Assembly (NCBI RefSeq): GCF_964355755.1
Contig: NC_092674.1
Coordinates: forward strand, 2,356,001-2,420,000
Direction: 5' to 3'
Source of the DNA: Antedon mediterranea
Taxonomy: Eukaryota; Animalia; Echinodermata
DNA length: 64,000 bases
Part shown: positions 41,201-47,200 of the stretch, in pieces
Layout of the letters: each line of letters begins with the position of its first letter
How positions within the stretch are numbered: position 1 is the stretch's first letter
Notes under the pieces: model-generated
Told to the model about the DNA's origin: nothing
What the model saw: only the letters and a program-made list of their open reading frames with translations
Databases searched by the model: none
Translations under genes and position numbers: made by a program

Positions 41201-44200
41201 GACAAATGCCATTAGCACTATAATATTTTTATTGCAATGATTTTGATTATAACACCAACAGCCAAAATCTTTCTCAGTGAAGATACAGTCAGTTGTGTAT
41301 GATAGACAAAGCTTTTACTACAAATAAAAGCCATTAGCACTAAAATATGTATTAAGGCACAAAGCTAGGAATTTTTTATTTAATACTTTGATATTATACA
41401 GGAATCTTTATTGTTGAGGAAATATCAATAGCTAATCAAGTTTTTTTTAAATCTTGTTTAAAGGTAAACAATTTGTTATGTATTGCTTATTGCATTTTAC
41501 ATATTTATTTAGGTTCTTATTGAAAATGGTGAACTGATATCTGGTATCATCTGCAAGAAGACATTAGGGACATCTTCTGGTTCTCTTGTCCATGTCTCAT
41601 TCATGGAACGAGGCCACGAAGAATCCAAGCTATTGTATGGCTACATCCAGACAGTGGTCAACAACTGGCTTCTCTTAGAAGGTCACTCTATCGGTATCGG
41701 TGACTGTATTGCCGATTCTAAAACGTACGAGGATATTCAGAGTACGATTAAGAAAGCGAAACGTGATGTGATTGACGTTATTGAGAAAGCGCATAATGAT
41801 GATTTAGAACCAACTCCTGGTAATACACTACGACAGACCTTTGAAAATCAGGTGAGTAGTTTTACTATGTAAAGCTCTGTCCACACTATCAAACTAGTTG
41901 ACAAAAAAGGTGTGATATGCCCAAATATGGTAGTGATATACCTAAATATGGTAGTGATATGACATCATCATGTCCATATATGGGCAGATCACATGTTTTT
42001 GTCACATAAAGTTTGATAGTGTAGATAGAGCTTAGCGATGTTTTATGTTTTAAAGAACCATTTTAATACAACACATTGCAGTTAAAGATGTATTGTCCCT
42101 TTGACTAATTCCAAAAAAATAAAAAATAAAAGATTTTGAAAAAAGGTGGGTCATTTTGAAGTATCATAATAGTTATTAACTATCACCAAAAATTTTTCGG
42201 GAAAAAAAAAAATTAACTGAAATACATACGTTTTTTTGTTACAAAAATAACTTTGACTTCCAGTCAAAGTTTTCAATCAAAACATATCCCATAATGAAAC
42301 GCGCTTGTTTGGCTACTCTGTATGCATAATCATAAAACTTCCTCATGATCTGTGTGAAAATACCTTCTTAACCGTGACGAGTTGTAAACAATCCTAATTT
42401 AGCATATGCATAATGCGTACTCATGGTTTGAAATCTTTGTTTACTTTCGCTCGTGACGATTTTCCAGATGAAATGTAATCAAACTAATTTACCTGTTAAT
42501 TACGTAAACTTGTTGTTTTTGGCTCGAATTTTCGACTTAAAGTGAAAAACTTTAATATTACTTTGATATGGCCACTTTAAATTTAGAATATTTTGACCTT
42601 CATTTTTTTGTGTTTCAAGGGACAATACATCTTTAAACTATAATTAGTGAAATTTGTCTTTTTTTAGGTAAACAGAATTCTGAATGATGCTCGTGACAAG
42701 ACTGGTGGCTCTGCTCAGAAGAGCTTGTCAGAGTTCAACAACTTTAAGGTCATGGTGGTAGCTGGATCAAAGGGGTCAAAGATCAACATTTCTCAGGTAA
42801 CATTAACACTATATTTAACAATATCAACCTCTATGTTATTTATTGCTGTTTGTAATGGTAGTCTTATAGCGCCTAATAAAATGTTTCTAAGCGTTTTACA
42901 CACACAAATAATCCATAAAATATTCTAAGATAACAAAAAAAGCAAGAAAAGCAGAGGAACCATTTACACTGCTCAGTTCTCCAGCACTTTGAAGCTCCCA
43001 CTCACCGGAACAGTATTCACAGGAACTTGAGGGAAAAATGCATCTGTCTATCCTATCCTATTATTATCTGCTTTATTTATATTATTCTGACTACAATAAA
43101 ATGAGTTATTGCTAATGTATGGATGAATGTTTGTTGTTGTTTCTCTAGGTTATTGCTAATGTATGGATGAATGTTTGTTGTTGTTTCTCTAGGTTATTGC
43201 TAATGTATGGATGAATGTTTGTTGTTGTTTCTCTAGGTTATTGCTAATGTATGGATGAATGTTTGTTGTTGTTTCTCTAGGTTATTGCTAATGTATGGAT
43301 GAATGTTTGTTGTTGTTTCTCTAGGTTATTGCTAATGTATGGATGAATGTTTGTTGTTGTTTCTCTAGGTTATTGCTTATGTATGGATGAATGTTTGTTG
43401 TTGTTTCTCTAGGTTATTGCTTATGTATGGATGAATGTTTGTTGTTGTTTCTCTAGGTTATTGCTAATGTATGGATGCATGTTTGTTGTTGTTTCTCTAG
43501 GTTATTGCTAATGTATGGATGAATGTTTGTTGTTGTTTCTCTAGGTTATTGCTAATGTATGGATGAATGTTTGTTGTTGTTTCTCTAGGTTATTGCTAAT
43601 GTATGAATGAATGTTTGTTGTTGTTTCTCTAGGTTATTGCTAATGTATGGATGAATGTTTGTTGTTGTTTCTCTAGGTTATTGCTAATGTATGGATGAAT
43701 GTTTGTTGTTGTTTCTCTAGGTTATTGCTAATGTATGAATGAATGTTGTTTGTTGTTGTTTCTCTAGGTTATTGCTAATGTATGGATGAATGTTTGTTGT
43801 TATTTCTCTAGGTTATTGCTAATGTATGGATGAATGTTTGTTGTTGTTTCTCTAGGTTATTGCTAATGTATGGATGAATGTTTGTTGTTGTTTCTCTAGG
43901 TTATTGCTAATGTATGGATGAATGTTTGTTGTTGTTTCTCTAGGTTATTGCTAATGTATGGATGAATGTTTGTTGTTGTTTCTCTAGGTTATTGCTAATG
44001 TATGGATGAATGTTTGTTGTTGTTTCTCTAGGTTATTGCTTATCTATGGATGAATGTTTGTTGTTGTTTCTCTAGGTTATTGCTAATGTATGGATGAATG
44101 TTTGTTGTTGTTTCTCTAGGTTATTGCTAATGTATGGATGAATGTTTGTTGTTGTTTCTCTAGGTTATTGCTAATGTATGGATGAATGTTTGTTGTTGTT

Positions 44201-47200
44201 TCTCTAGGTTATTGCTTATGTATGGATGAATGTTTGTTGTTGTTTCTCTAGGTTATTGCTAATGTATGGATGAATGTTTGTTGTTGTTTCTCTAGGTTAT
44301 TGCTAATGTATGGATGAATGTTTGTTGTTGTTTCTCTAGGTTATTGCTAATGTATGAATGAATGTTTGTTGTTGTTTCTCTAGGTTATTGCTAATGTATG
44401 GATGAATGTTTGTTGTTGTTTCTCTAGGTTATTGCTAATGTATGGATGAATGTTTGTTGTTGTTTCTCTAGGTTATTGCTTATGTATGGATGAATGTTTG
44501 TTGTTGTTTCTCTAGGTTATTGCTTATGTATGGATGAATGTTTGTTGTTGTTTCTCTAGGTTATTGCTAATGTATGGATGAATGTTTGTTGTTGTTTCTC
44601 TAGGTTATTGCTAATGTATGGATGAATGTTTGTTGTTGTTTCTCTAGGTTATTGCTAATGTATGGATGAATGTTTGTTGTTGTTTCTCTAGGTTATTGCT
44701 AATGTATGGATGAATGTTTGTTGTTGTTTCTCTAGGTTATTGCTAATGTATGGATGAATGTTTGTTGTTGTTTCTCTAGGTTATTGCTAATGTATGGATG
44801 AATGTTTGTTGTTGTTTCTCTAGGTTATTGCTAATGTATGGATGAATGTTTGTTGTTGTTTCTCTAGGTTATTGCATGTGTAGGCCAACAGAATGTGGAA
44901 GGTAAACGAATTCCGTTTGGATTTCGACACAGAACACTACCTCATTTTATCAAAGATGATTACGGTCCCGAGAGTCGTGGATTTGTTGAAAACTCTTACC
45001 TGGCCGGTTTGACTCCCTCAGAAATGTTCTTTCACGCTATGGGAGGACGTGAGGGGTTGATTGATACAGCTGTCAAAACTGCTGAAACAGGTTAGTTGTA
45101 AAATGAGAATAATATATAATAAGTATATTTGACTTAGGCCTATAAGGCAGACAATATAATAAATATATTTGACTTGTAAGGCAGACAATATAATAAATAT
45201 GTTTAATTTCAGGTTATATTCAACGTAGGCTGATCAAAGCTATGGAGAGTGTGATGGTGAGGTACGATGGTACCGTACGTAACAGCAATGATTACTTGGT
45301 ACAGCTAAGGTACGGGGAAGATGGTTTGGACGGATGCTCAGTTGAATTCCAACAGCTGGCCACACTTAAACCTTCACACAAGGCCTTTGCTAAGGGCTAC
45401 AAATTTGACTATTCAAATGAAAAGTAAGTACAAGTAAAGCTTGTGTGCCCCTTCAGTTTGTTTGAGCATAGCAAATGTATTAAGCTCTGTCTACACTATC
45501 AACCTAGTTTGACAAAAAAGTGTGATCATCATATCCATATATGGGCACATCCCATTTTTTGTCGCATAAAGTTTGAGAGAGTTGTGTAGAGCTTAAGAGA
45601 CTATACTTTTTGATTGAACAATATTCAACATTATATATTTTTTTTTTGCCTACCAGGTTAATGCGTAAGAACTTAAAGGAAGATATTGTCCGTGACTTAC
45701 TTGGGAACAACCAAGTTCATTTGGAATTAGACAAAGAATGGGAACAACTTAGGGAGGACAGAGAGATCCTCAGGGAAGTGTTCCCATCTGGTGAAAGCAA
45801 GGTATGACGGTGTACAGTCCCTGCCTCAAGAGTGAATTTAATCACAGCCTTCACAAGATTAAGAGTGAATTTAATCACAGCCTTCACAAGATTAAGAGTG
45901 AATTTAATCACAGCCTTCACAAGATTAAGAGTGAATTTAATCACAGCCTTCACAAGATTAAGAGTGAATTTAATCACAGCCTTCACAAGATTAAGAGTGA
46001 ATTTAATCACAGCCTTCACAAGATACACACACAAGTTGCTCTACATAAATACACTTTAACAATTAATTTGCATTTTTTTATTTGATAACAATCTACCGTT
46101 TGTATATATTGTTCCCAGACTCTTTAAGAATGTTAAGCAAACATCTTAAACACCAAGCTACAAAAACTATTTAATAAATTACCCTTAAAGCTCTGCCTAC
46201 ACTATCACTTTATGTGACCAAAAAATGTGATATGCCCATATATGGACATGATGATGTCATACTACTACCATATTTAGGCACATCACAATTTTTTTGTCAA
46301 ACTAGTTTGATAGTGTAGACAAAGCTTAAGAATTCATTAACATCCCTTACTGCCTACACCCATCATATTCTTTATTTTTCCATGTATTAACAAATCTTGA
46401 TTATTCTCTCATAGGTTGCATTGCCATGCAATTTACAGCGTATGATCTGGAATGCAAAGAAAATCTTCCGCATAGATGCCAGGAAAACGTCAGATCTACA
46501 TCCTTTGACAGTTATTGAGGGTAGGTCCTGATAATAACAATTTTAAATTAATTGTATGCAGGCAGGACAGATAATAAATTGATACAACTTCGTATCTGAG
46601 GTAGATTATATTTTTGGTGGCCATACTTTACTATGTAAAAGTGAGTAATATCTTTTTATGTTATATTCGACTAAATAGGTATTCGTAAATTGTGCAAGAG
46701 TTTAGTGATTGTAAAAGGAGAGGACTCGATCAGCAAACAGGCACAACAGAACGCCACTATCCTATTCAACAGTCTTCTGCGATCTACCTTTAGCTCTCAG
46801 AAGGTCATGCAGGAACACCATCTGTCGTCGGAAGCATTTGATTGGCTGCTTGGTGAAATCGAGACCAGATTCAACCATGCTCATGTGAGTAACATTTATG
46901 GTTTTTTTTTCGATGTAGTGATATTTAGGTAAATATTGACAAATCCTTTCTGAATGCAATACCCCAATTGTTTACGTAATGTGTGAAATATTTCAATCAC
47001 AAGTTTTTTTACAATTCAAATCATGACATCAACAATATGGTCATTTCATTTTCACTAGGGGGTACCTGGTGAGATGTGTGGAGCTTTAGCTGCTCAGTCT
47101 CTCGGTGAACCAGCCACTCAGATGACCCTGAACACTTTCCATTATGCTGGTGTCTCGGCTAAAAACGTCACGCTTGGTGTGCCTCGTCTTAAAGAAATCA

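Follow-up and report, generated by a model that had tools for sequence, protein, structure and literature searches.

How is one 3' splice site chosen when an intron ends in 40 near-identical copies of it? The question is raised by intron 11 of POLR2A, the RPB1 gene, in a 64,000-nt stretch of the Antedon mediterranea genome (NC_092674.1, positions 2,356,001 to 2,420,000 of the forward strand). The whole stretch was analyzed and is called the window here, and all coordinates count from its first base. The intron ends in a minisatellite in which every unit repeats the acceptor together with the first bases of the following exon. The array is probably a neutral "mirage," the name given to a tandem repeat that spans an intron-exon boundary (PMC3087553), with copy 40, the copy adjoining the exon, being chosen by exon definition.

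The gene model was built by tblastn and boundary fitting, and the parts of it that concern the array are as follows.

35238 to 52277, plus strand: POLR2A (RPB1) coding region, 24 coding exons, 1934 aa.
42668 to 42796, plus strand: coding exon 11, 129 nt, ending in ...KINISQ; the donor after it scores 7.9 bits.
42797 to 43104, plus strand: 5' part of intron 11, 308 nt of unique sequence.
44868 to 45090, plus strand: coding exon 12, 223 nt, VIACVGQQ...TAET, with its donor at 45091.

With acceptor 40 in use, the translation of the 24-exon model was identical to RefSeq XP_071951149.1 and XP_071951150.1 of A. mediterranea, two accessions with one common sequence. Exon 4 as a query retrieved feather-star RPB1 at 99% identity, in a cluster with two members, and exon 12 matched solved RPB1 chains with a best E value of 4e-43. 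The exon 12 matches and the identity with the RefSeq protein confirm the gene as POLR2A, the identity proposed by the first-pass annotation of this DNA. Intron 11 (42797 to 44867, phase 0) measures 2071 nt; the 39 introns modeled in the window range from 92 to 2071 nt, with a median of about 300 nt.

The array within this intron was resolved into the following elements.

43105 to 44875, plus strand: mirage minisatellite of 40 units, each 44 bp except for one of 47 bp, with 8 additional bases.
43105 to 43112, plus strand: left microhomology 8-mer, intronic, matching the opening 8 bases of exon 12 exactly, with no pyrimidine tract before it.
43113 to 44823, plus strand: 39 decoy acceptors, with AG ends from 43148 to 44823.
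44832 to 44867, plus strand: authentic acceptor, copy 40, of the consensus unit type and the one taken by the RefSeq-identical model.

Tandem Repeats Finder (TRF) reported a period of 44, 40.2 copies, 98% matches, and a score of 3431, the highest among the 55 TRF rows of the window, and this result and a unit-by-unit parse both agree with the array as originally described. The copies run head to tail, each composed of 36 intron and 8 exon bases: a branch-like motif comes first, then a U-rich tract free of AG, the TAG, and the 8 bases that open the exon. Exactly one AG was found per unit, giving 40 near-identical, complete-looking acceptors from 43148 to 44867 at the end of intron 11, as had been claimed. 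The accompanying claim of a CTAAT branch motif in every unit with its A at about -33 needs correction, since the A lies at -34 and the motif is altered by an A10T change in 6/40 units. By type, 29 units are consensus, 5 carry A10T, 2 carry G18A, and 4 are singletons, one of them the 47-bp unit with a 3-base insertion. Altogether, 13 differences from the consensus trace to 6 distinct events, and mean identity is 99.3%. From so few events in 40 units (1.77 kb), we infer that the array is young.

The array begins and ends with the same 8 bases, those that open exon 12. Given intron base composition, the chance of such an 8-mer match is 2.2e-5, which agrees with the earlier suggestion of a slippage-type origin at an 8-bp microhomology. 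An intronic 8-mer lying 44 bases upstream would have matched the start of exon 12; slippage or unequal exchange between the two 8-mers may have duplicated the acceptor, and ordinary minisatellite turnover could then have expanded it to 40 copies. With one unit, intron 11 would be 352 nt, near the middle of the 39 modeled introns.

By its sequence organization the array is a mirage minisatellite, a kind already described, and is unusual in its copy number, purity, and host gene. Three structural features place it there: the unit spans the boundary, the copies run into the intron with the exon-adjacent one authentic, and turnover is of the minisatellite type. In amphioxus, mirages have been reported in Adh3 (units of 10 to 72 bp) and in the globins BflGb6 and BflGb9 (PMC3087553), as well as in troponin C and PGBD5 (PMC3902484). 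BflGb6 is the closest parallel in side, as the 3' end of its intron and the exon start are repeated; two haplotypes carry 6 and 3 units, and reverse transcription-PCR (RT-PCR) suggests that regular splicing is undisturbed (PMC3087553). The POLR2A array shares with these cases the head-to-tail boundary copies and the high identity, and its 44-bp unit falls within the Adh3 range. It differs in belonging to a crinoid and to an essential housekeeping gene, in carrying 8 exon bases per unit, in the intactness of all 40 acceptors, and in copy number (40 versus 3 to 6 in BflGb6 and 2 to 7 in PGBD5). No crinoid or POLR2A mirage turned up in the literature searches, none of which was aimed at crinoids or POLR2A, and a search for minisatellites spanning a 3' splice site with identical acceptors gave no match. 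The first-pass annotation had passed over this repeat class, as well as a second GT in each unit that is considered below.

Within the window, a tandem-amplified intron end was found at 1 of the 80 intron ends examined (plus-strand models). A second hit, not in tandem, consisted of one AT-rich 16-mer lying about 2.3 kb off, and three arrays near minus-strand genes end short of splice sites as judged by eye.

When reading was continued from each of the 40 acceptors, acceptor 40 alone yielded VIACVGQQ, as expected if only the last copy restores the RPB1 frame. From acceptor 39 the frame closes at TAG 44881, the stop shortly into the true exon that had been predicted. For the other 38, a TGA in the second unit had been anticipated, which is correct for 34 (after 21 residues); 3 stop instead at a TGA inside the first unit (the G18A variants, after 5 residues), and 1 stops at a TAA after 32 residues. 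For all 39 decoys, at least 207 nt separate the premature stop from the exon 12/13 junction downstream of it. Stops that far upstream of a later junction are, by the usual junction rule, targets of nonsense-mediated decay (NMD), and the decoy products would therefore be NMD targets.

Splice site strength was scored with position matrices built on 39 U2-type introns in four plus-strand genes, with one U12-type intron left out (39/40 of those modeled). The unit acceptor scored 13.3 bits with leave-one-out, rank 3 of 39. A strict branch motif was present at 5/39 acceptors and a loose one at 29/39. The decoys are thus good acceptors, and nothing within them marks copy 40. The sequence that follows does differ. 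In an exon-versus-intron Markov score, nucleotides 9 to 88 of exon 12 reached +0.05, with 6/35 exons lower, whereas the same stretch after decoy 38 scored -0.21, lower than every exon (0/35 below it); among 151 intron 80-mers this is close to the 10th percentile. The dinucleotide TG makes up 18% of the unit versus 7% in introns. The higher exon score after copy 40 than after a decoy supports, without proving, a choice made by exon context and by proximity to the exon 12 donor.

The mechanism may accordingly be pictured from these properties of the sequence. All copies would offer an identical strong acceptor, but copy 40 alone would then lead into exon-like sequence, while the decoys would be followed by UG-rich, intron-like repeat with no good donor. 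Being nearest to the exon 12 donor, copy 40 would be committed by cross-exon pairing, and rare errors would carry premature stops and be removed by NMD. The original view that copy 40 must be selected is supported, with exon definition as the simplest means.

Human minisatellites offer a partial parallel. Variable number tandem repeats (VNTRs) at donors were reported in F7 intervening sequence (IVS) 7 (37 bp, 5 to 9 copies), IFI6/6-16 (25 pseudo-sites), CBS IVS13 (15 to 20), LMNB2, and PDGFA, and only the authentic donor is used in F7, LMNB2, and PDGFA (PMC1557585). As here, a minisatellite reiterates the splice site exactly and the exon-adjacent copy is the authentic one. All of these are donor-side, however, so the first-transcribed copy is also the exon-adjacent one, whereas an acceptor-side array puts the two at opposite ends. 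A duplicated acceptor junction is known from CBS 844ins68, in which the junction between intron 7 and exon 8 is repeated; the distal copy is strongly favored and the mRNA is normal (PMC2630376). That case differs from ours in having two copies of 68 bp in a human gene. Repeats at exon-intron boundaries can also alter splicing, a general point made in PMC2812944.

Several observations weigh against a neutral array with copy 40 chosen by exon definition. The RefSeq models are predictions: the annotation uses copy 40, exclusivity of use in the cell is another matter, and a predicted protein is silent on minor or NMD-degraded products. The scoring models are based on the 39 introns and 35 exons of four plus-strand genes. 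An upper limit on exon length was rejected as the sole explanation, since copies 39 and 38 would give exons of 267 and 311 nt, within the 99 to 348 nt of the 35 real internal exons (copies 1 to 37 would give at least 355 nt). Masking of the decoys by RNA structure was rejected as well, as the last units with the exon start folded at -41.5 kcal/mol versus -54.6 +/- 4.2 for shuffled sequences, 200/200 of which folded at least as well. Loss of a decoy AG was seen in 0 decoys, which with only 6 events is uninformative. From the published systems, IFI6 and CBS intron 13 use two pseudo-sites besides the authentic one, and duplicated globin sites gave conflicting outcomes (PMC1557585); CAG arrays are spliced mainly at their first AG, although the AGs there are only 3 nt apart (PMC10614865).

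Of the alternatives, the one that fares best is a leaky, unselected array, in which a measurable share of splicing uses copies 39 and 38, copy 1, or short pseudo-exons, the products are degraded by NMD, and the allele is mildly deleterious at a cost that may grow with copy number. We regard this as doubtful overall; an NMD-hidden leak to nearby copies is plausible. The decoys equal the authentic acceptor in strength, copies 38 and 39 give exons of normal length, neighboring pseudo-sites are used in IFI6 and CBS, and copy 1 is transcribed 1.7 kb ahead of copy 40. The published tests of mirages were RT-PCR on mRNA, which would probably miss NMD targets. Each unit also holds a donor-like GT.

43158 to 43166, plus strand: donor-like GT (example), position 13 of its unit and 12 nt beyond each decoy AG.

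This GT scored 7.0 bits, above 11/39 real donors. It has 2 matches at +3 to +6, whereas 3 or 4 are the rule (15/16) among real donors with a base other than G at -1, and by this compensation pattern it appears weak as a candidate donor. Paired with a decoy, it could in principle yield a micro-exon of 12 nt that keeps the frame, or else pseudo-exons of 56, 100, or 144 nt that contain stops. Besides the weakness of the internal GT, two points count against leakage: the gene is essential and the array grew to 40 copies, and the sequence after the decoys scores under all 35 exons.

Alternative splicing coupled to NMD (AS-NMD) has also been considered, with the array as a selected device tying POLR2A output to elongation rate and copy number, a proposal to which we give very little credence. 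By read-through, every decoy (39/39) runs into a premature stop with a junction still to follow, as in AS-NMD elements, and the 1.7-kb lead of copy 1 might provide a kinetic window. Stops are, however, what a 44-nt AT-rich unit gives without selection. The array is very young, and its youth argues against an old, conserved device. A like architecture is found in unrelated genes, where it is reported not to disturb splicing, and unrelated minisatellites occur in other POLR2A introns. TRF arrays were found in 7/23 introns of POLR2A, from which it appears that the gene tolerates repeats. An autoregulatory AS-NMD device is hence unlikely. The bolder form of the idea, that the 39 upstream acceptors catch a real share of exon 11 splicing while the polymerase covers the 1.7 kb and that a hypervariable repeat thereby tunes RNA polymerase II dose, is very unlikely; if it were true, more POLR2A mRNA would reach NMD, or gain a 4-residue micro-exon, when elongation is slow or alleles are longer.

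POLR2A is prone to repeats, and of its arrays only the one in intron 11 covers a splice site. Intron 8 contains a 49-bp minisatellite of 17 copies (39679 to 40532, plus strand) with two unit types and an AG/GT in each unit, which touches no splice site. Young tandem repeats are present in intron 9 (40959 to 41353, 189 bp x 2), intron 14 (45828 to 46024, 33 bp x 6), and intron 18 (48048 to 48107, 14 bp x 4).

Recursive splicing was proposed because every unit junction reads AG/GT, and this layout was indeed seen at all 40. Exon 11 would join an upstream copy, a donor would be regenerated, and the remainder of the intron would be removed in one or more steps, a course of events that seems highly improbable here. 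On its side, each acceptor is followed directly by GT (40/40), as at ratchet points; joined exon 11 supplies CAG at -3 to -1; the regenerated site scores above 87% of 781 intronic non-donor GTs; and a single jump between copies 1 and 40 would have sufficient length, although nothing supports such a jump. Against it, AG/GT begins 12/39 ordinary exons in the window, 10/23 in POLR2A, and the layout is therefore commonplace. The regenerated donor reaches 3.1 bits, with 2/39 real donors lower. T at +3 and T at +5 each occur in 1/39 donors and never together, and all 10 donors without G at +5 have a purine at +3. The donor sequence is also that of the mature exon 11/12 junction, so its use in the mature mRNA would delete exon 12 (223 nt, a frameshift). 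Finally, a step of 44 nt is less than half of the shortest intron (92 nt). Taken together, the weak donor, the common layout, and the short step speak against stepping through the array.

Ratchet points are described as conserved, located in long introns, and equipped with donors generally stronger than those of recursive-splicing exons (RS-exons), and in mammals the exon junction complex suppresses regenerated donors at certain recursive sites (PMC8605326). The array resembles them in having AG followed by GT and differs in its weak regenerated donor, its youth, its 44-nt spacing, and the shortness of its intron (2071 nt, or 352 nt with one unit, versus the 31- and 73-kb examples in the same source).

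The first-pass annotation had also offered the array as a snapshot of intron gain by duplication of a proto-splice site, which the data do not support: no new intron position is apparent, and an existing intron grew from about 352 to 2071 nt. The intron that the array terminates possesses 308 unique bases and a donor of its own, and the RefSeq-identical model needs no exon inside the array. Intron gain by duplication requires a new intron (PMC4974935), and the role of mirages as raw material for intron gain is a hypothetical proposal in PMC3087553. The likeness is that the duplication carries splice signals; here, unlike there, neither a new intron nor a new exon resulted.

The array itself is supported by its internal variation. 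One substitution is common to units 7, 8, 22, 26, 32, and 33 and another to units 12, 15, and 29. When 12 independent random errors were distributed over the units, five or fewer distinct changes arose in 0 of 200,000 trials. Because random errors never reproduced such recurrent variants at scattered units, the data favor a real, internally evolving array over sequencing noise, with the copy number taken as assembled. An assembly artifact hiding a true locus of one or a few units has a next to negligible probability, for although near-identical tandem units are difficult to assemble, the variants are recurrent and interspersed, the window has no Ns, the microhomology ends are precise, and the flanks yield an intact gene.

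The remainder of the window holds further features. Positions 1 to 33300 are gene-dense, with RPL35A (PF01247), a TIR-domain gene (weak PF13676), a cyclin gene (PF00134), a WD40 gene, and a mitochondrial carrier gene (PF00153). The last intron of the carrier gene (32521 to 33239, plus strand) has the donor GTATCCTT and the branch site TCCTTAAC close to its AG, and we take it to be U12-type from the consensus. Within this intron lies a full-length 5S rRNA-like copy (32565 to 32688, plus strand; RF00001, 59.3 bits versus a gathering score of 38), which may be a pseudogene or a 5S-derived repeat. An acidic-protein gene at about 17600 to 23450 on the minus strand gave no Pfam match from a 42-aa piece. 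A palindromic 21-bp satellite of about 22 copies (28295 to 28760) sits between 91-nt inverted arms (27596 to 27686 and 29145 to 29235) that are 98% complementary and 1458 nt apart, resembling a foldback element; its matches to microRNA families were weak and under gathering scores. A dispersed element like a miniature inverted-repeat transposable element, roughly 150 to 250 bp, was recognized by eye in many introns and both orientations by its terminal inverted repeats and internal 21-bp repeat (for example, at 7586 to 7740, 30850 to 31010, 32110 to 32360, 41870 to 42035, and 46190 to 46330).

The POLR2A array adds crinoids to the animals with mirages. It presents an essential gene with 40 strong, nearly alike acceptors, and its variant units would allow reads to be placed within it. 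It amounts to a natural experiment, as its position on the acceptor side can separate "first transcribed wins" from "exon-adjacent wins," which donor-side VNTRs cannot do. If copy 40 is used almost alone, the locus would be a clean demonstration of exon definition in a short-intron echinoderm; if there is a leak that depends on copy number, it would reveal a cost of mirages that would go unseen by RT-PCR on mRNA.

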